Assembly: GCA_963718615.1 (NCBI GenBank)
Contig: OY970368.1
Location: forward strand, 3,840,001-3,904,000
From: an uncultured cyanobacterium
Lineage (GTDB): Bacteria > Cyanobacteriota > Cyanobacteriia > PCC-9006 > JAAUQQ01
Direction: 5' to 3'
DNA length: 64,000 bases
The notes beneath the pieces are model-generated. The model saw only the letters and a list, made by a program, of their open reading frames with translations. It was not told the DNA's origin and did no database searches. Numbering within the stretch: position 1 is the first letter of the stretch; each line of letters begins with the position of its first letter. The position numbers and the translations under genes are program-made. This document shows positions 5,563 through 20,414 of the stretch, in pieces.

Positions 5563-5695
5563 TCAGACCTCCACCTCTTATAGCAGCAAAATTATAAGCG
5601 ATTTACTTTGAGGCTGGGGTAGTCAACTTAACAGCACTTGATTCTGATTGCCTCACAGATAGCTCTCGTCTGCGCCTTCACCAGTAACCGAAGCC

Positions 5696-5774
5696 GCATA
5701 ACGGCCCCGTTCACCCGCCGCAGAAGCCTTGCGGTCTTAACGGCCAACTTAATACGGTCGGCGTGCCACGCAAT
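5696..5774 (-). other. integron attC site (distal part), split by IS110 copy 1; its R'' box is at 6746-6752
   Basis: plus strand GCATAAC-ggccc-CGTTCAC-ccgccg...cggtcggc-GTGCCACG-caat [IS] GTTAGGC; R/L box spacing matches the intact attC at 18285-18376 within 1 nt. Confidence 0.8.
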
Positions 5775-5786
5775 TATGGGGGGACA

Positions 5787-6079
5787 GGGGAGAAGAAACA
5801 GGAAGAGACGACTATGCATTGGACGACACAGAGGATGTCTACTAACATACCGAATCGCTCATCCCTCTCCCATGCGCGAATTTGACAGAAGCGCATAAAG
5901 TCAAAAAAGGAGAGCATCTGCCAGCTTGTCGGGACGACTATGCAACGTTAGTCAGAAGATGACTACTAACCTATCGAATTGCCCGTCCAGCCAATCCAAT
6001 CGCATACCAACGAATCCTCAGGGAGCAGGGAAAGACCCTTGACCTAATCTCTTCGCTTTGCGTGGGTGGCAGACTCTCC
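5787..6079 (+). ncRNA. putative IS110 bridge RNA with three guide loops, copy 1
   Basis: non-coding leader; closing stems GGGAGA/TCTCCC and GGAGAG..TCTGCC (5909-5922) / GGCAGACTCTCC (6068-6079); three guide-hairpin-guide units matching attC and element ends. Confidence 0.68.
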
Positions 6080-6108
6080 ATCCAACAAAATACCCCCAAT
6101 CTAACACA

Positions 6109-6543
6109 ATGAAACTCAACCTCAGCACAACCGTTTATGCTGCCTATATCGGCATTGATTGGGCAGACCGCAAACATGATATTGCTCTCTACGATTGCCA
6201 GAATGAGATCTGGGCACAATCCACTATTCAGGCCACCCCTCAGGCGGAGGAAATTGGCAAGCAACGTTGGGTCCATTGGCGTTGGTCTTGTCCTATCTTT
6301 CTGAGGCAAATTTTTGTCGAGTGGGTTACCCATGCTCGGTCTCGTTCGGTCTGGTCACAGGCATTTTATCAACAACAACGACTGGCGGGTAAATCCCATC
6401 AAAAGGCTATTCGTGCTTTGGCATATAAAGGGGGTCAGATTCTTTGGCGATGTTGGCAGGATAGGACTCCTTATGATGAGGAAAAGTATCTCGCTGCTCT
6501 CCGGCGCAAAAACTCTCCTTTGGTCGCTCTTTTACCGGATTAG
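6109..6543 (+). pseudogene. IS110-family recombinase with in-frame internal deletion (144 aa)
   Basis: N-terminal YIGIDWADRKHD (first Asp of DEDD) fused near nt 6247 to C-terminal GKQRWVHWRW..LRQ..GKSHQKAIRALA..ILWRCWQDRTPYDE. Confidence 0.87.
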
Positions 6544-6746
6544 TTCTCTATCTTGTTGCTCGATTGAACTGCTTTAGGTTTTGAACCAATCGAATACAAA
6601 AAATACGCAGATGGCTCTGATAGACCAGTTCGGCTGAGACTCAAAACTGACTATTAGGGGGTTTGCGCTGGCTTCAATTCGCTCAGATATTACATCAGAG
6701 TTATTTTTGATATTCTCTATTGACCCCGTCCGCCTCAAGGCCTATG

Positions 6747-7862
6747 TTAGGCACGGGGCTGTTGTTGTGTGGTGCAGTGTATGCCACCACCGCCAGCAGC
6801 GATCGCATCAATATTTAGCTGGACAACATCGCGATCAGGGAATAGATCTTGCAAAGTCGCTTTTGCTTTTTCATCAGCGATGACATTGCCAAACTCTGGC
6901 GCGATGACAGCGCCATTGACCACATAGAAATTGATATAACCTGCGGCAAAATCAGCACTTTTAAACTTGGGACGAATGCTGGTGGGACTTTCAAGGACAG
7001 CCACTTCTAGTTTATGACCATCCGCATCCGTCTCAGACCGCAGAATCTCTAGGTGCTTTTGAGTAACAGCATGGTCGAACGAGGCTGGATCGGGATCATA
7101 TCCAGCAATGACAGTCCCTGGACGCGCAAAGCGGGAATAAAAGTCAGTATGACCATCTGTAATATCTTGCCCTCGGATACCAGGTAACCAAATGATCTTG
7201 CGGAGTCCCAGAAGTGGCTTGAGTAGTGTTTCACACTCAGCTTTAGCCATTCCAGGATTACGATTTTCGTTGAGGACACAGCTTTCGGTGATGATTGCTG
7301 TCCCCTTACCATCCACTTCAATCCCACCACCTTCTAGGACTAACTTAGTATTAATAGCCTGAACACTAGATTTCTGAATGACAAATTCAGCGACTTTTGC
7401 ATCATGGTCATGATCTTGCTTCTGACCCCAACCATTGAAGTTAAAATCAATTCCACCTAAATATCCACGACTATCTTTCACAAAAACAGGACCAGTATCA
7501 CGTATCCACAGGTCATCTAAAGCCGAAACAACCATATCTACAGATGAACCGCATTTTCGGACAGCTATCTCGTAATCTTCTTGTCGAACTAGCATGGATA
7601 CAGGCTCATAGCGAGCGATCGCTTTAGCAATAGTTGCTAGATTGTTTTGCACTTCAGAAAGCAACTTTTGTCCCCAAATGGCACGACTTGCACCAAAAGC
7701 CATCCAAGTACGATCATGAGGCTCTGATTCGTCAGGCATCAACCAAGTCGTTTCCTGTGTTCCCACGGCTTCAGAGTCACTACAACCCAAAACATTGTGC
7801 ACGATCATCGCTCCTGAACAACCTGCCATAAATTGAATCAGTGATCGTCGATTCATGATCAA
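6747..7862 (-). CDS. agmatine deiminase / peptidylarginine deiminase family protein with Tat-lipoprotein-like signal (gene cassette)
   Basis: DDLWIRDTGP, FNGWG, LEGGGI, DITDGHTD, YINFY, GGGGIHCTTQQQP; N-terminal NRRSLI...LGC; its stop TAA lies inside GCCTAAC (attC R''). Confidence 0.93.
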   Translation of the reverse strand: MIMNRRSLIQFMAGCSGAMIVHNVLGCSDSEAVGTQETTWLMPDESEPHDRTWMAFGASRAIWGQKLLSEVQNNLATIAKAIARYEPVSMLVRQEDYEIAVRKCGSSVDMVVSALDDLWIRDTGPVFVKDSRGYLGGIDFNFNGWGQKQDHDHDAKVAEFVIQKSSVQAINTKLVLEGGGIEVDGKGTAIITESCVLNENRNPGMAKAECETLLKPLLGLRKIIWLPGIRGQDITDGHTDFYSRFARPGTVIAGYDPDPASFDHAVTQKHLEILRSETDADGHKLEVAVLESPTSIRPKFKSADFAAGYINFYVVNGAVIAPEFGNVIADEKAKATLQDLFPDRDVVQLNIDAIAAGGGGIHCTTQQQPRA

Positions 7863-11879: not shown

Positions 11880-12896
11880 TTAGGATGGAAGGTGCAGGGG
11901 AATATAGAGTCGTCGAGCGAGTTCTGGGAATCGGTCACGATCTGCCACGATGAAAAACCCATATTCCCCATTTTCGTGATAACCCGTGCCAAAGCGGAAG
12001 GCTTGCTCTCGTCGATCGATTCTGTCCATTAACTGATTGAAGTGATTAATTACTGCCTCGACATCCATCCAGGTGCCTCTGCAATCTGCTCCAAACTGAT
12101 ACGTTTCGCCATTAAGCATGTACTGCACAACCCAATGAGAATCCAGATCGCTGAAAACGCCAATTCCTTCAGAGCGTTGATCGGAGATCAAGAATTGCGT
12201 CGTTGTTCCGTCAGGATTTCGCATGGAGAGTTCAGTCGTCCCGCTCACATTCTTAAACCGCTTTTCTTCTCCTATAAATTGTGAAATACTATTCAGACAA
12301 ATAGGAGAATTTGTTGATTTAGCAAGATCCCTGAAAAGCTCATCATGCCGAGGTTCAAAACCTATATCACGTAGGCTTGCATAGACCACCCGTTGCCCGA
12401 ATAGTTCATAAATGATGTTGATATGGTCATGCAGTATTAAGGCTGGGTTCTGAATCCACGAGTTAATTATTTCGATAGACTCTGCTGTCCATTGCTCAAC
12501 GATTCCAGCTACTTGCAGCATTTGCGAAACATGAGTAGCTATATGCCCCTCTTCATGCCACCTAAACATTAGACGATGCCAAGGATGCGATTGCGCTAGT
12601 GTTTCAGGTCTTCTACAACCATATTTCAGCAGGGTATAGGCCAGAAAGTGCCCAGCATAGTCAGTGGGATGATCCACTAAAGCATCTCTTAAAGCATTGA
12701 CAAGATTTTGGTCTGCTGCCCAGGTTCCATGCTTATAGATGTCTTCGCTATGTACTTTATACGCGCGATTTGAAAGCTCTATGCAAACCTCATAAACGCG
12801 GCCAACCTCATCATTTTCATCTCGAAAATGGTGTCGGTCATACCATCCAAGCAATTTGAAAAGCTCTTGGGTACTGGGCTTAAAATCGTTAGGCAT
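11880..12896 (-). CDS. hypothetical protein (gene cassette)
   Basis: 338-aa ORF starting 30 nt after the attC R' box at 12927-12933; no motif recognised. Confidence 0.8.
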   Translation of the reverse strand: MPNDFKPSTQELFKLLGWYDRHHFRDENDEVGRVYEVCIELSNRAYKVHSEDIYKHGTWAADQNLVNALRDALVDHPTDYAGHFLAYTLLKYGCRRPETLAQSHPWHRLMFRWHEEGHIATHVSQMLQVAGIVEQWTAESIEIINSWIQNPALILHDHINIIYELFGQRVVYASLRDIGFEPRHDELFRDLAKSTNSPICLNSISQFIGEEKRFKNVSGTTELSMRNPDGTTTQFLISDQRSEGIGVFSDLDSHWVVQYMLNGETYQFGADCRGTWMDVEAVINHFNQLMDRIDRREQAFRFGTGYHENGEYGFFIVADRDRFPELARRLYIPLHLPS

Positions 12897-12926
12897 CAGT
12901 CAATGTTACCCTCTGTCGGGAGTTAA

Positions 12927-13007
12927 GCCTAACGTTGCCCCTCACCCGCCGCCAATCACACCTGCATCAAACCGATCAATTTTCGGCGGTCGGTGTGCAT
13001 GGGCGTT
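12927..13007 (-). other. integron attC site (distal part), split by IS110 copy 2; its R'' box is at 13980-13986
   Basis: plus strand GCCTAAC-gttgc-CCCTCAC-ccgccgcc...ggcggtcggt-GTGCATGG-gcgtt [IS] GTTAGGC; removing the IS restores 7-5-7...8-5-7 geometry. Confidence 0.87.
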
Positions 13008-13019
13008 TATGGGGGGACG

Positions 13020-13313
13020 GGGGAGAAGAAACAGGAAGAGACGACTATGCATTGGACGACACAGAGGATGTCTACTAACATACCGAATCGCTCATCCCTC
13101 TCCCATTCGCGAATTTGACAGAACCGCATAAAGTCAAGAAAGGAGAGAATCTGCCAGCTAGTCGGGACGACTATGCAGCGCCAGTCAGAAGATGACTACT
13201 AACATATCGAATCGCCCGTCCAGCCAATCCAATCGCGTACCGACGAATCCTCAGGGAGTAGGGAAAGACTCTTTCCATAATCTCTTCGCTTTGCGAGCGG
13301 GGGCAGACTCTCC
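13020..13313 (+). ncRNA. putative IS110 bridge RNA with three guide loops, copy 2
   Basis: guide pairs TGCATTG/CTAACA (13048, 13075), TGCAGCG/CTAACA (13174, 13199) and CTCAGGG/CCATAA (13250, 13275), each pair separated by a short hairpin. Confidence 0.72.
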
Positions 13314-13342
13314 ATCCAACAAAACACCCTCAATCTAGCACA

Positions 13343-13777
13343 ATGAAACTCAACCTCAGCACAACCGTTTATGCTGCCTATATCGGCATTGATTGGGCAG
13401 ACCGCAAACATGATATTGCTCTCTACGATTGCCAGAATGAGATCTGGGCACAATCCACTATTCAGGCCACCCCTCAGGCGGAGGAAATTGGCAAGCAACG
13501 TTGGGTCCATTGGCGTTGGTCTTGTCCTATCTTTCTGAGGCAAATTTTTGTCGAGTGGGTTACCCATGCTCGGTCTCGTTCGGTCTGGTCACAGGCATTT
13601 TATCAACAACAACGACTGGCGGGTAAATCCCATCAAAAGGCTATTCGTGCTTTGGCGTATAAAGGGGGTCGGATTCTTTGGCGATGTTGGCAGGATAGGA
13701 CTCCTTATGATGAGGAAAAGTATCTCGCTGCTCTCCGGCGCAAAAACTCTCCTTTGGTCGCTCTTTTACCGGATTAG
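13343..13777 (+). pseudogene. IS110-family recombinase with in-frame internal deletion (144 aa)
   Basis: same deletion as 6109-6543. Confidence 0.87.
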
Positions 13778-14363
13778 TTCTCTATCTTGTTGCTCGATTG
13801 AACTGCTTTAGGTTTTGAACCAATCGAATACGAAAAATACGAAGATGGCTCTGATAGCTCAGTTCGGCTGATACTCAAAACTGACTATAAGGGGGTTTGC
13901 GCTGGCTTCAATTCGCTCGGATATTACATCAGAGTTATGTTGTATCTTCTCTATTGACCCCGTCCGGCTCAGGGCCTATGTTAGGCACTACATCTACAAA
14001 CAACTGACAACATAAGTTAGCCAAGATCTGAAAGCATAGGAGTTCATCATAAGCAGGGGGTTGAGCATGCAGCCAGACTACTTTTTTCTACTTGAAACCT
14101 ATTTTATTTGACTAGCTTCAATTTTCCCTGCTTCTGTCAATTGCCATGCTGACTTTGAACCCCTAAGTTCTGGTACTCTTTCCAGAAGCCCATTTGTTAG
14201 ACGACAATAGCATTGGCGGCTGCTCGACATTTCCTGGCGGGAGTTGTCGCGAAAGCGTGGCTTGGATCGTGAGACAGACGTGAGACTTTGACAGCTCACT
14301 GGCGTGGCGATCGACAAAAAAAGACACTCATAGGGTCCCCCTGGAAAGAAAGGACTCTAACGA

Positions 14364-16154
14364 GTGTCGAGAGTAATAATGTATCAACAGCGAGTGTACA
14401 TGAATGCAAAGGAGCATGGCCTGTCGCAGCAAGATGCGGCAGCGGTGGCGGAATTTTCGGTGCGAACCGCGCAACGAATGGATGCCAACGAGTGGCAGCA
14501 GGGGAGTGGAGAGGGCACCGGGGTGCGGACCCGGCCAGATCCACTCAACGGTCTTTGGGAAGCCGAACTAGAGGCGATGCTGCGAGCTGAGCCAAGACTG
14601 AAACCGACGACGTTATTTGAGCATTTGCAGGACAAATATCCGGGTCAATATCCGCAAGTGCTCAGGACGCTTCAGCGGCGAGTGAGAACCTGGAAAGCAC
14701 TGTATGGTCCAGCTCCCGAGGTGATGTTTGAGCTGCGTCACGAGCCGGGGGTGCAAGGATTTTCCGACTTCACCGAACTCAAAGGGACGGTGGTGACGAT
14801 AAATGGAAAGCCCTATGAGCACTTGATTTATCACTACCGCTTGGGCTACAGCGGCTGGTCCTACGCGGAGTTAATCGAGGGGGGTGAAAGCTTTGTCGCC
14901 CTATCCGAAGGATTGCAGAATGCCCTGTTTGCCTGCGGCGGGGCTCCAAAGCAGCATCGCACCGATAGCCTGAGTGCGGCCTATCGAAATCTGGGTGGGA
15001 AGAAGACCAAACCGCTGACGCGCTTGTATGACGACCTGTGTGAGCACTATCGGTTGCAACCGACGCGAAACAACCGGGGAATCGCCCACGAGAACGGTTC
15101 TATTGAAGGCCCCCACGGTCATCTGAAGAACCGCATTGTCCAAGCGATGTACCTGCGCGGCAGCACCGACTTCGCTAGCGTCAGCGACTATCAAGACCTG
15201 CTCAATGACTGTGTGGCCAAGCTCAATGCCCAGCATCAGGATAAGTATGAGCATGAGAAAGCGCATCTCCAGGCGTTGCCCAAATACCGGGCTGCGGACT
15301 ACGAACTCCTCACCGCCAAGGTGAGCAGCAACAGCACGATTGATATCCGCTGCATGCTCTACAGCGTGCCGTCTCGCTTAATTGGCCGGTCCCTGGAAGT
15401 GCATCTGCACCACAACCGCCTGATGGGCTACCTCGAAGGCCATGAAGTGTTCAGGTTGAAACGGATTCGTTCTACTGACAAGGACAAGCGGCGCGCCCGC
15501 TCGGTGGACTATCACCATGTCATCGAAGGGTTGCGCAAAAAGCCCTTGGCCTTCCTCCACAGCACCTGGCGAGAGGACCTCCTGCCCAATGAGCGCTATC
15601 ACCAACTCTGGAAACAGCTCCAGGCTGGCTTTGAGCTTGATTCTGCCGCCGTGCTCATGGTCGAAGCCCTCTATATTGCGGCGACCCAAAACAAGGAAGC
15701 GGCGGTCGCTGACTACCTCTTCCCAGAGATTGAGGCCAAAACCCTCACCCTCTCAAGGCTCAGACTCCATTTTCAGTTGCTCACCAAACTCGAATTCCCC
15801 ACCGTGAATGTCCAACAACATGACCTCAACGACTACGATGCCCTTCTGTTCACCCACAGCAGCGTCATCCCAGATGCAGAACCAGAGCTCGTCTCAACCG
15901 GAGCTGAGCCCTTACCAAAGCCTCAGCGCTCAGCTCAAGCACCTGCGCTTATCCCATATGCTCAACCACTGGGAGACCTTGGAGCAGCAAGCCATGCGAG
16001 AGACCTGGTCCTACGCGCAATTTCTCTTGGCCCTGTGCCAACTCGAAACAGACCGCCGCAAGGCTTTGCGCCTCCAAAGAGCCATCACCGAAGCTCAACT
16101 GCCCAACGCCAAAACGGTTTCCAATTTCGATTGGACACACCTGCCCCTGGTTAA
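14364..16154 (+). CDS. istA: IS21 transposase IstA
   Basis: RTRPDPL, LRTLQRRVRTWKA, SDFT, HRTDSLSAA, HENGSIEGPHGHLK (DDE), YSVPSRLIG; start may be 14379. Confidence 0.93.
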   Translation: MSRVIMYQQRVYMNAKEHGLSQQDAAAVAEFSVRTAQRMDANEWQQGSGEGTGVRTRPDPLNGLWEAELEAMLRAEPRLKPTTLFEHLQDKYPGQYPQVLRTLQRRVRTWKALYGPAPEVMFELRHEPGVQGFSDFTELKGTVVTINGKPYEHLIYHYRLGYSGWSYAELIEGGESFVALSEGLQNALFACGGAPKQHRTDSLSAAYRNLGGKKTKPLTRLYDDLCEHYRLQPTRNNRGIAHENGSIEGPHGHLKNRIVQAMYLRGSTDFASVSDYQDLLNDCVAKLNAQHQDKYEHEKAHLQALPKYRAADYELLTAKVSSNSTIDIRCMLYSVPSRLIGRSLEVHLHHNRLMGYLEGHEVFRLKRIRSTDKDKRRARSVDYHHVIEGLRKKPLAFLHSTWREDLLPNERYHQLWKQLQAGFELDSAAVLMVEALYIAATQNKEAAVADYLFPEIEAKTLTLSRLRLHFQLLTKLEFPTVNVQQHDLNDYDALLFTHSSVIPDAEPELVSTGAEPLPKPQRSAQAPALIPYAQPLGDLGAASHARDLVLRAISLGPVPTRNRPPQGFAPPKSHHRSSTAQRQNGFQFRLDTPAPG

Positions 16155-16722
16155 CCCTCTCCCGATTCAAAAACTCGCCACTGAACCCCAGTGGATTGAT
16201 GACGCCCAAAACTGTCTCTTCTTCGGACCTTCTGGGGTCGGCAAAACCCATCTGGCCGCTGGCATCGCTCGTGCCGCCCTGGAAGCGGGCAAGCGCGTCA
16301 AATTCTTCTGTGCCACCACCCTGGTGCAGTATCTCCAAAAAGAAAAGCTTCATCTCCAGCTTCAGCCTGCCCTGAAAAAGCTCGACCGCTTTGACCTCGT
16401 GATCATTGATGACCTCGGCTATGTCCAAAAATCCGAGGCAGAAACCTCCGTTCTCTTTGAACTCATTGCCTATCGCTATGAGCGCAAAAGCATCATGGTC
16501 ACTGCCAATCAGCCGTTCAGTGAGTGGAACTCCATCTTTGGTGATTCCATGATGACCGTCGCCGCCGTTGACCGCCTCATTCACCATGCGGTCATTCTCG
16601 AAATCAAGGCGGACAGTTTTCGTAAACGCTCCGCTCACCAGCGCTCTGAGAACTTGAAGGCACTCCCGGCAAAATCCTCTGAATCTGACTCCCAAACATC
16701 GACACACCAGAAGCGATCTTAG
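15874..16722 (+). CDS. istB: IS21 AAA+ helper ATPase IstB
   Basis: Walker A GPSGVGKT, Walker B LVIIDDLGY, AAVDRLIHHA; start codon uncertain (ORF opens at 15808). Confidence 0.93.
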   Translation: MQNQSSSQPELSPYQSLSAQLKHLRLSHMLNHWETLEQQAMRETWSYAQFLLALCQLETDRRKALRLQRAITEAQLPNAKTVSNFDWTHLPLVNPLPIQKLATEPQWIDDAQNCLFFGPSGVGKTHLAAGIARAALEAGKRVKFFCATTLVQYLQKEKLHLQLQPALKKLDRFDLVIIDDLGYVQKSEAETSVLFELIAYRYERKSIMVTANQPFSEWNSIFGDSMMTVAAVDRLIHHAVILEIKADSFRKRSAHQRSENLKALPAKSSESDSQTSTHQKRS

Positions 16723-18284
16723 ATTGTCGTCTTGACCTGAGATTGCCGCTTCTCATTTCCTTTTGCCAATTCAGTGGGCTCCCCGCCTTCTAATTGTCGC
16801 GACAGGCAAATGTCTTGACACTTGATACCCATTATCTCTAAGTTTATAAAATTCGACCTTAACCAGATTCTCGGATCTGATGCCTGTAATGTCTCTTGCT
16901 TGTTGGTTAGTAATTGTTAGATTTGATCGAAGAAAACTGAGAATCGCCTCTGCTGGTACTGCAAGAGGTATATGAGGAAGGGTAACTTTGACATAGTTTC
17001 CATCCTCAGTGATCTCAGGCGATTTCAGTCCCCACTCTTTCATCTTTTGAAAGGTAGTGTTGAGCCCTTCGCCTAAATCCTTGTTCGGAGCCTCTTTGTA
17101 TCTATTAAGAGTTCTAACAATTTTGGCATTTCTTGCATAACGTGCATCCAATATGTTTTCAATAGTAACGTATCCGGGAAGACGTCCTGGACTTAGAATC
17201 TCAATTCTATTGTTATATATTAAAATTCGAGTATCATCTGATATTGAATAATCTCGATGAATGATTGAATTCACAATTACTTCCCATACTGCTTCGGGAG
17301 GATAATTAAGGTTCTTAAGACCGTCGGAAGTCCAGACTTTCACGGATGACATTATGCTTTCGACGGCAGTGACAGTATCCTTGATCAGACTGTAGAGCGG
17401 ACCTTCAACCGAAACCTGCTCTGCTAAATGATCGCGCTCAGGATCATCTTCTTTTGTTTCATACCTGGTAATTTTTACTGCACATTTTCTAGGCACAACT
17501 GCACTAGGACAGGGATGAAATAATAGTGCTGCTGCTACCCTCACTTCCCAGGTTTTGTAATCGAATAAGTTTTGATTTATGCAAAATTCTAAAGGATCAG
17601 TTTTAGGGGAATAATCACCTAAAAAGGAGGTCAACTCCTCAGACTCCGCAACTTGCTCAGCAGGAATATCCTTGATTAACTGATCTTCAAAGGATGTAGC
17701 ACCCTTTGCAAATGACAGTTGCGTAATTCTTTCTGGATCTTTGACAGGTAGGGATTGAGCACCCTGTCTTTGATAGACTGTTCCATCAGCAGTTTTGTGG
17801 ACTTCGGAACTTTTCTCAATCATTATCCTTAAGATATATCCGGATTTGCCTTCACACCTCAATATTTCATATCTCAAATCCAATGGAGGGGTGATGTCGA
17901 AAATTGCCTGCAAATGGCTGTTCAATTCTTCGATTTTTGATACCCCTTGCCATCTTCTTCCTGGATCAGTCTCATCTTCATCATCTGCGATACCAATAAT
18001 AAGCTCTCCGCCATCTGCATTTGCAAAAGCTACGGCTGCCTTTTGTACTTTCGCTCCCTTAATTTGAGCAGCTTTTCTGTCAAAAAAATGAGATTCTTCT
18101 CTTATTGAGAATTCATCAGCTTCAAATGAGGTAATTGTTTTGGTATTCATGTTTCCCGTGCTGAATTCAATTGTAATTACTAAAATTTTATTCGAATATT
18201 TCTTCGTTTTATGAGCTTCCTTGTTACATCTTGAAGATTAGCAGATAGCTTTTTGCAGATTCTGTATGTCTATGAACGAAGCTG

Positions 18285-18376
18285 CCTAACGTTCCCGCTA
18301 ACCGGACGCAGATAACCTTTGCATCTCACCGATAACTTTAACTTGACTTCGTTACGGTTCAGCGGGGTTGTTATGG
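18285..18376 (-). other. intact integron attC site
   Basis: minus strand CCATAAC-aaccc-CGCTGAAC-cg...cg-GTTAGCG-ggaac-GTTAGGC; L'' has the extra base; begins about 12 nt after the stop of 18389-19171. Confidence 0.9.
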
Positions 18377-19644: not shown

Positions 19645-20414
19645 ATGCAAACCCAGCCCCCCAAGCTTCTAGATCAAGTCCGTGTGGCCCTACGACTCAA
19701 GCACTATTCCTGCAAAACAGAGCAAACTTACGTTCAGTGGATTCGGCGTTACATTCTGTTTCACAACAAGCGCCATCCCAAGGACATGGGCGTGACCGAA
19801 GTGGAAGCCTTCTTGACCCATCTCGCGGTTCAAGAACGGGTTGCTGCCTGCACGCAAAACGTTGCCTTTAGCGCCTTGCTCTTCCTCTATCGTGAAATTC
19901 TTCAACAACCCTTCGAAAATGTTCAGGCTCTCCGAGCAAAGCCTTCGCGCTATCTACCTACGGTACTGACTCCCGAAGAAGTCCGCCAAATCATGCGACA
20001 TCTTTCCGGTGAATGTCGCCTCGTGATTCAAATTCTCTACGGAAGTGGATTGCGGATTAGTGAAGCACTTCGACTCAGAGTTAAAGACGTAGATTTTGGT
20101 CAGCACCAGATTGTTGTGCGAGATTCTAAGGGGCAAAAGGGCCGGGTAACACCGCTGCCCGATCGCATCATCAAGCCTCGTGCCCTTCAGGATGCCGTTG
20201 GTTCTGCTGGTATTCACAAGAAAGTCAGTTGCCACACCTTCCGCCACAGCTTCGCCACCCACCTGCTGCATTGATTTGTTTTTATGGGGCATACGACATC
20301 CGCACCGTCCAAGAACTGTTGGGCCACAAAGATGTTAAGACAACCATGATCTACACCCATGTCCTCAATCGCGGCGGACGAGGCGATCGCAGCCCGCTAG
20401 ACCATAATTTTTAG
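19645..20414 (+). pseudogene. intI: integron integrase, internally deleted and frameshifted
   Basis: [85 protein letters not shown]; segment missing near 20178; stop and frame change at 20272-20290. Confidence 0.92.

Follow-up and report, generated by a model that had tools for sequence, protein, structure and literature searches.

The 64,000-nt window analysed here (positions 3,840,001 to 3,904,000 of contig OY970368.1, assembly GCA_963718615.1, from an uncultured cyanobacterium) carries a short insertion sequence (IS) of the IS110 family, located within an integron attC site. Positions given without prefix are those of the window, while those prefixed C1 lie elsewhere in the same genome. 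The left end of the element harbors a 334-nt leader with three guide-bearing units, two of which resemble the target-binding loop of a bridge RNA (TBL1 and TBL2), and the third its donor-binding loop. To our knowledge, every bridge RNA described so far has a single target loop and a single donor loop. The features of the element, its leader and its target site are the following.

12915..13007 (+): left part of the interrupted attC site, matched by an nhmmer profile of 59 flanks (3852915-3853009); in minus-strand (array) orientation, L''...L'-R'
12996..13002 (+): left-target 7-mer TGCATGG, followed by the spacer GCGT (13003-13006) and, at 13007, a T common to target and element
13008..13979 (+): IS110-family element, non-autonomous deletion derivative of about 972 bp (one terminal T ambiguous), both parts 100% identical to C1:2245199-2247006
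13030..13104 (+): TBL1, extra 5' target-binding loop with basal stem, internal loop and hairpin (covariance model 67.7 bits, E 1e-12)
13048..13082 (+): within TBL1, left guide TGCATTG (13048-13054), hairpin GACA/TGTC (13058-13061/13069-13072), right guide CTAACA (13075-13080), then UA (13081-13082)
13142..13155 (+): 5' arm of the long helix, GGAGAGAATCTGCC (duplex energies and minimum free energy fold)
13156..13228 (+): TBL2, target loop in the canonical position (covariance model 78.5 bits, E 3e-15)
13174..13206 (+): within TBL2, left guide TGCAGCG (13174-13180), hairpin GTCA/TGAC (13184-13187/13193-13196), right guide CTAACA (13199-13204), then UA (13205-13206)
13243..13288 (+): donor-binding loop with basal stem CGAA/TTCG, left guide CTCAGGG (13250-13256), hairpin and right guide TTTCCATAAT (13272-13281)
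13302..13313 (+): 3' arm of the long helix, GGCAGACTCTCC (duplex energies and minimum free energy fold)
13343..13777 (+): remnant recombinase open reading frame (ORF) of 144 aa, in which ~45 aa of the N terminus are fused to ~95 aa of the C terminus
13954..13959 (+): TTGACC, -35 hexamer in the right end (promoter scan, integrated form 9/12)
13968..13979 (+): right end of the element, with the left-donor 7-mer CTCAGGG (13968-13974), then CCTA, then the common T
13980..13986 (+): GTTAGGC, complement of the attC R'' box GCCTAAC and right target of both right guides

The window copy lacks about 830 bp of the recombinase gene that are present in the full-length copy C1:2245199-2247006, whose leader is 100% identical to the window leader. 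The remnant ORF has neither the Ser nor three of the four acidic residues, and a Pfam scan of it gives no significant match. The 421-aa product of the full-length copy matches DEDD_Tnp_IS110 (PF01548, 2e-27) and Transposase_20 (PF02371, 5e-16), and it aligns with the IS621 recombinase chain 8wt6 (E 3e-10), including the catalytic D, E, D, D and S. Judged by these matches, the element is a member of the IS110 family, as proposed in a first-pass annotation made from the DNA letters, and its recombinase is a distant homologue of that of IS621. The right non-coding end spans about 200 nt. An 8-bp subterminal inverted repeat (GGACGGGG at 13015-13022, CCCCGTCC at 13958-13965) is found in the window copy, of which about 5 bp are left in a divergent copy. 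Subterminal inverted repeats, of 7-17 bp, are usually a trait of the IS1111 group; here the putative guide RNA lies upstream of the gene, as in the IS110 group.

Leader fold, conservation and distribution

The leader is built of a 5' stem-loop, TBL1, and a long helix that encloses TBL2 and a single donor-binding loop, and the minimum free energy fold of 13018-13330 shows TBL1 as a separate 5' stem-loop upstream of this helix. The first-pass annotation had described the leader as a standard bridge RNA of ~170 nt, with units 2 and 3 inside one long stem, preceded by an extra and separate target loop. Its coordinates for the three units and the helix are correct in the sequence, as are the distances of 27, 25 and 25 nt between guide starts, and the arrangement itself, with a two-loop unit of ~172 nt behind the extra loop, is borne out by the duplex energies, by the fold and by the alignment of relatives. 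The likeness of units 1 and 2 is not a product of chance: a direct repeat of 36 nt at 86% identity with a spacing of 124 nt, plus a 12-nt exact copy, clearly marks them as a tandem duplication. An Rfam 15 scan of 12000-15000 with E up to 1 retrieved no relevant family.

When run against the 6.1-Mb genome, a covariance model of the loop unit, akin to the leader model that the first-pass annotation had suggested, retrieves window units 1 and 2 at E 1e-12 and 3e-15 and finds both units in each of five genomic elements, plus one remnant. Sixty loop units from relatives align into a basal stem and an internal loop, followed by a hairpin of four pairs and the opposite loop side. In this alignment 85.6% of the cells pair, whereas sliding the partners by 1-3 columns leaves 50% at most. 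Compensatory pairs are present at columns 9-65 (GC 38, AU 17), 10-64 (GC 27, AU 25) and 31-43 (AU 32, UA 26), one of the three being the swap from A-U to U-A that sets the unit-1 hairpin apart from the unit-2 hairpin. The covarying stems include G-U pairs on the plus strand only. The long helix (13142-13155 with 13302-13313) is present in 28 of 28 aligned two-loop leaders and is kept by differing sequences in divergent lineages, cognate arms giving a mean of -22.8 kcal/mol versus -18.1 kcal/mol for non-cognate ones.

Concerning the donor-binding loop, RNAalifold applied to the 28 two-loop leaders pairs the first nine bases of the element with the 3' side of the loop, the first five pairs being present in every leader, and the right donor guide pairs with the left end of the element in 28/28. 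The left donor guide is identical to the 7-mer near the right end and varies along with it. A CTCAGGG guide goes with a CTCAGGG end in the 14 rows with a canonical right end (the row of a decayed window copy reads CTCAAGG), and a CTCAGAG guide with a CTCAGAG-GCTA end in three of three relatives. The alignment thus confirms a donor loop that is able to pair across the junction of the two element ends, and the circle junction reconstructed in the first-pass annotation had anticipated both guides.

Subterminal protein-binding repeats are common among transposons, so the repeated units might function at the DNA level, perhaps as sites in the left end to which the recombinase binds, rather than as RNA loops. 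We give this explanation next to no credence: the covariation of the stems includes the strand-specific G-U pairs, the donor loop is complementary to both element ends, and the sense and antisense arrangement of the guides is the one found in proven bridge RNAs (Durrant 2024).

The distribution of the leader was explored by several routes. A protein-based scan with one genome per species yielded 62 loci, nearly all of them cyanobacterial, and, of 151 genomes sampled across the class, 16 contain matches to the unit model. A search of 401 genomes of the phylum with the leader DNA, which is too insensitive for this purpose, hit only 3 genomes, and a metagenome scan with a 15-nt donor-loop pattern gave 119 stretches, 80 of which were made into loci; by the unit model one of the 80 (L189) is real and the others are chance matches. 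Leaders fall into two length classes, of ~335-355 nt with two target loops and of ~250-265 nt with one target loop behind a plain hairpin. A recombinase tree built from 25 sequences has the one-loop lineages at its base and unites the two-loop elements in a single clade (19 rows, support 91/90). A one-loop to two-loop polarity is likely, although the tree is rooted by midpoint on a long outgroup branch. The two-loop layout is present in 18 of the 19 rows of this cyanobacterial clade and is kept down to ~65% recombinase identity. The remaining row, L025, is nested within the clade and has a single loop, and its leader (L025:1286-1509) looks chimeric, joining a TBL1-like basal stem to a TBL2-like hairpin and guide. 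This composition suggests that L025 secondarily lost a loop when its two loops recombined.

Across the clade the two loops are conserved to a like degree, with scaffolds and right guides 0.94-0.98 identical and linkers only 0.53-0.57 identical. The left guides vary in their triplets, with 8 variants in TBL1 and 3 in TBL2, and also show a TGCA/TCCA switch. In all 14 distinct guide pairs (14/14) the two left guides differ from each other.

The attC target and its recognition by the guides

All copies of the element occupy sites that start with RYYYAAC, continue as an imperfect palindrome of 80-100 nt and end with GTTRRRY. The window site, with its ends GCCTAAC and GTTAGGC, fits this RYYYAAC/GTTRRRY form of attC. 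When two empty sites were folded as single strands of DNA, each formed a hairpin with three bulges of one base, at energies no better than those of shuffles. The genome encodes an intact integron integrase (C1:948656-949594; TIGR02249, 443.8 bits over the full length, cut-off 265). A remnant of the element consisting of the right end only is located at C1:944668-945113, 3.5 kb from this gene. The proposal of the first-pass annotation, that the target is an integron attC site with a variable L'' 7-mer, is therefore supported by the site ends, the bulged hairpins, the intact integrase gene of the genome and the degraded one in the window.

It should be noted that attC-like sites were called with the nhmmer profile of the 59 flanks, scans by end motif and fold energy having yielded almost nothing. 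About two dozen sites were obtained in this way in the genome, of which 7 are occupied. The 16 unoccupied sites with a readable 7-mer all have the form 7-mer-N3-4-T-GTTA; hence TGCATGG-gcgt-TGTTAG, the target reconstructed in the first-pass annotation, corresponds to a real empty-site form. On the other side of the element, the right flank is TGTTA[GT] in 17 of the 18 rows with a canonical right end and TGTTTG in the remaining one. The orientation of the integrase gene places the array on the minus strand, which puts the insertion one base after R'' and makes the variable 7-mer the L'' box. Elements of the IS1111-attC group reportedly also enter integron attC sites at one of their ends and with a fixed orientation. 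Cores of TAT, TA or TT were considered for the crossover and rejected, since the empty sites lack a TAT before GTTAG and the right junction that is observed would not arise from a TT core.

Both right target guides read CUAACAUA, whose CUAACA part is antisense to TGTTAG. The UA that follows CUAACA is complementary not to the target but to the final two bases of the element at its right end (CCTA), as would be expected for a handshake guide, by analogy with the handshake dinucleotides of IS621 (Hiraizumi 2024).

To compare the left guides with the flanks, 59 distinct insertion events with a readable left flank were used, of which 49 stem from two-loop elements. Either left guide matches the flank at 6/7 or better in 36 of these 49 events, against 23.5 expected from shuffled flanks that were given the same small spacing freedom as the data (p about 5e-5). 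Taken separately, TBL1 reaches at least 6/7 in 19/49 events (12.6 expected, p 0.004) and TBL2 in 18/49 (11.3 expected, p 0.003), while exact 7/7 matches to TBL1 occur in 9/49 (3.5 expected, p 0.0007). The best match belongs to TBL1 in 19 events and to TBL2 in 17, and all of these figures are about unchanged once near-duplicates are collapsed. Guides that track the flanking attC sequence across homologues, which the first-pass annotation had named as a check, are thus found for both loops above the shuffled expectation. An extension of the left guide by three bases toward the crossover was discarded, as matches there, judged by eye, are no better than chance.

A second and cleaner signal comes from the G/C switch at guide position 2: a CC-type flank is found in 14 of the 24 events with a TCCA guide versus 1 of the 35 others (Fisher 1.8e-6), and the TCCA guide is that of TBL2 in 11 of the 14 CC-flank events. 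Six guide pairs have both TBL1-type and TBL2-type insertions. The window pair, TGCATTG/TGCAGCG, accounts for 14 events, 6 of TBL1 type and 4 of TBL2 type. This genome also contains a second type of element, 70-75% identical to the window type and with guides TGCATCG/TCCAACG, which is inserted once each at TGCATCG (7/7 to TBL1), TCCAACG (7/7 to TBL2) and TCCAGCC. When 23 attC-like genomic sites are compared with the guides of the window element at 6/7 or better, TBL1 covers 8, TBL2 covers 7 and their union 14. Both loops therefore have what is expected of a target loop, i.e. a sense left guide, an antisense right guide and covariation with targets, TBL2 more weakly so.

These data bear on two other views of the second loop. 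One loop could pick the insertion site while the other serves a different step, as a TBL-only RNA for direct transfer or excision, as a decoy or as a regulator of recombinase loading. TBL1 is a 5' module of its own that the long helix does not enclose, its guide signal is the stronger and more variable one, with TBL2 exact matches at chance, and a natural TBL-only RNA in a separate pathway is reported for CazIS110-1 (Sun 2025, a preprint). Such a division of labour is nevertheless unlikely, since both loops retain a full left guide, an identical right guide and the UA, and both track flanks (p 0.004 and 0.003). With the TCCA/CC link residing mainly in TBL2 (11/14) and nine exact matches in TBL1, neither loop looks idle in target choice. 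The second view, a neutral tandem duplication whose decay is still to come, could appeal to the clear duplication of units 1 and 2 and to the single loop of the nested lineage L025. We regard it as very hard to sustain: the duplication is kept in 18/19 clade members, to ~65% recombinase identity, its scaffolds are 94-98% conserved beside linkers at 53-57%, compensatory changes have accumulated, and the two guides always differ and both track flanks.

Several observations weigh against the use of both loops as target guides. Exact 7/7 matches to TBL2 are not enriched (4/49, 3.6 expected), so that the TBL2 signal rests on the 6/7 matches and on the TGCA/TCCA switch, and in 13/49 insertions neither guide reaches 6/7. 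With variation confined to 3-4 of the 7 guide positions, each site carries little information. The flank shuffles take no account of the relatedness of elements and hosts. TBL2 of the full-length copy matches none of the four window-type sites of this genome at 6/7, though the copy at 5774 matches its own variant TBL2. The recombinase of the window copy is non-functional, so its leader cannot be served by an enzyme of its own. The fold energy of the leader is unremarkable (z -1.06, with 14 of 100 shuffles as stable). Finally, the geometry is unlike that of IS621: the 7-mer ends 3-4 nt from the crossover, the spacing to the left end varies (3-6 nt) and, in place of the core dinucleotide of IS110 bridge RNAs, target and element have a single T in common, with the left guides stopping 3-4 nt short of it and the right guides covering it.

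The lack of a functional recombinase does not seem to have immobilised the deletion derivative. The same internal deletion is found in two further copies, one in the window and one at C1:4716682-4717585, each in a different attC site. The derivative must therefore have moved after losing part of its gene, presumably by means of a recombinase supplied in trans. The 0.97-kb derivative thus spreads in the manner of a non-autonomous element. The second window copy has the TBL2 guide TGCAACG, and its donor right guide is altered to CCTAAT. The altered donor right guide, GACCTAAT instead of TTCCATAAT, is shared by the copies 5774-6751 and C1:4716682-4717585, and the full-length sister element L050 carries the same alteration.

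The window also contains a degraded integron integrase gene, with three attC-like sites in one orientation to its left (5676-5779, 12915-13009 and 18269-18370). Together with the neighbouring genes, these further features are as follows.

5774..6751 (+): second copy of the element with the same deletion, in another attC site (flank TGCCACG)
14364-16722: IS21-family element (istA-like ORF with a Mu-transposase C-terminal domain, plus IstB ATPase), separated by about 380 bp from the right-hand side of the interrupted attC site
16771-18150 (-): cassette-like gene for a protein with Schlafen AlbA_2 and HATPase_c_4 domains, oriented with the presumed cassette array
18269-18370: unoccupied attC-like site (TTCAGCG-GGGT-TGTTAT) between the Schlafen/AlbA_2 gene and the degraded integrase gene; 6/7 to the TBL2 guide
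19666-20405 (+): degraded integron integrase gene (TIGR02249 pieces of 221, 63 and 39 bits)

Proposed mechanism and comparison with known systems

Taking together the anatomy, the conservation, the covariation of stems and of guides with donor ends, and the statistical tracking of flanks by both left guides, all of which are observed, the leader probably encodes a bridge RNA of the IS110 type in which a further, complete target-binding loop has taken the place of the usual plain 5' hairpin, giving one RNA two address labels. How such an RNA would be made, bound by the recombinase and used at insertion can be sketched from its sequence.

Excision would join the element ends, and the TTGACC of the right end together with a TATTAT spanning the junction would form a promoter for the leader. 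Read from the sequence, the joined ends would give TTGACC-N17-TATTAT on the circle, and the promoter scan detects no promoter-like site in front of the leader; we infer that the leader is transcribed from this end-joined promoter. In the integrated form the right end (13954-13982) bears an outward promoter-like TTGACC-N17-TATGTT that faces the neighbouring cassette.

The RNA would then fold into TBL1, a linker and the long helix around TBL2 and the donor loop. The latter would read the joined ends, its CUCAGGG matching the right end in sense orientation and its UUUCCAUAAU the left end in antisense orientation. Both target loops would read attC. Each has its own 7-nt sense left guide (UGCAUUG in TBL1, UGCAGCG in TBL2), which would address the variable L'' box, and the antisense right guide CUAACA, invariant between the loops, would address T-GTTAG, which is complementary to the conserved core of R''. 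The UA next to the right guide would pair with the element end CCTA in handshake style, and strand exchange would take place at the single common T, between the target ..GCGT-T-GTTAG and the donor ..CCTA-T-TATGG. Since target and donor loops of one IS621 synaptic complex are, as structural work suggests, supplied by two different RNA molecules (Hiraizumi 2024), each target loop could work as an independent module, which makes an extra loop mechanistically plausible. Two address labels on one transcript would thus allow entry into two sequence classes of attC, while still being anchored on the R'' core.

Some unusual junctions bear on a different role for the pair of loops. Two solo remnants, at C1:1920899-1920975 (-) and about C1:4836445-4836520 (+), consist of the left end plus TBL1 and stop right after the right-guide DNA, where they are joined to the complement of the attC R'' box (...CTAACATA/TGTTAG) in a perfect palindrome. 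This point is occupied at L035:1065-1300 by a foreign insert of ~125 nt, one terminus of which resembles a right end, and the right-guide DNA of TBL1 seems to be a recombination hot spot. Inversion and aberrant excision were considered as origins of the remnants, and no model fitted.

Exact breaks of two left-end remnants and one foreign insertion at this DNA point to odd recombination near the elements, and the two target loops might cooperate in an attC-attC synapsis, so that the element would also delete, invert or shuffle cassettes. Excision and inversion between two sites are among the reactions for which bridge recombinases can be programmed (Durrant 2024), and loops from separate RNAs do join in one complex (Hiraizumi 2024). 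However, synapsis in IS621 requires a donor-type plus a target-type dimer, rearrangements that join two attC sites were neither sought nor seen, and we consider cooperation of this kind very improbable as the main role of the two loops. We rather favour, with fair though not strong confidence, a multiplexed bridge RNA both of whose loops are used to enter two attC classes, the position of the 5' hairpin serving as a guide slot; attC-attC pairing may in addition reshuffle cassettes.

Bridge recombinases are being intensely developed as programmable DNA-insertion tools. If the proposed reading is true, the 5' hairpin position tolerates a full extra guide module, a template for multiplexed or fallback targeting from one RNA, and the leader offers a natural test of loops as independent modules from separate RNA molecules. 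It would also show how a site-specific element copes with attC, a family of targets constant in shape and in one box and variable at the other. The element further adds an IS110-type lineage with upstream guides, in cyanobacteria, to the elements that parasitise integron cassette arrays.

Among the closest relatives are single-loop sisters (L040, L042, L045, L050, L052, L059, L063, L068 and L071), which have the same ends, right guide, donor loop, long helix and attC targets, but a leader of ~252 nt with a plain 5' hairpin in place of TBL1. In common with IS621 and other IS110 elements (Durrant 2024, Hiraizumi 2024), the RNA would be encoded in a long left non-coding end upstream of a DEDD and Ser recombinase. 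Its modules of stem, internal loop and hairpin, the sense left and antisense right guides, the single donor loop for the joined ends, the handshake-like dinucleotide provided by the right guide and the promoter split between the ends are likewise those described for IS621. The differences are the two target loops, where IS621 has a plain 5' hairpin and one loop, the left guides, which remain 3-4 nt off the crossover whereas those of IS621 run into its CT core, the single common T, the structured attC target and the distant recombinase (E 3e-10).

The IS1111-attC group (ISKpn4, ISPst6) shares a DEDD recombinase, insertion at an attC end in a single orientation and an RNA guide from a non-coding region. 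According to Siddiquee 2024, its seekRNA comes from a long right end, downstream of the gene, and contains a single module for target matching, whereas here the guides are in the 334-nt left end upstream of the gene, the target module is doubled and the hosts are cyanobacterial. CazIS110-1 (Sun 2025) resembles the present system in having a target loop as a separate module beside a full bridge RNA; there, the natural truncated TBL-only RNA is a shorter transcript of the same single loop, while here the second loop is a tandem and differently programmed one. In the literature text searched, on bridge RNAs, IS110 and attC-targeting elements, no bridge RNA with two target loops is described, in line with the first-pass annotation, which knew of no such layout; the figures and supplements of Durrant 2024 and of a 2026 genomic-language-model preprint (86 bridge-RNA models), outside that text, could hold one. 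The comparison thus supports the view that the two-target-loop layout, as interpreted here from comparative evidence, is new, within a kind of RNA, the bridge RNA, that is itself known.

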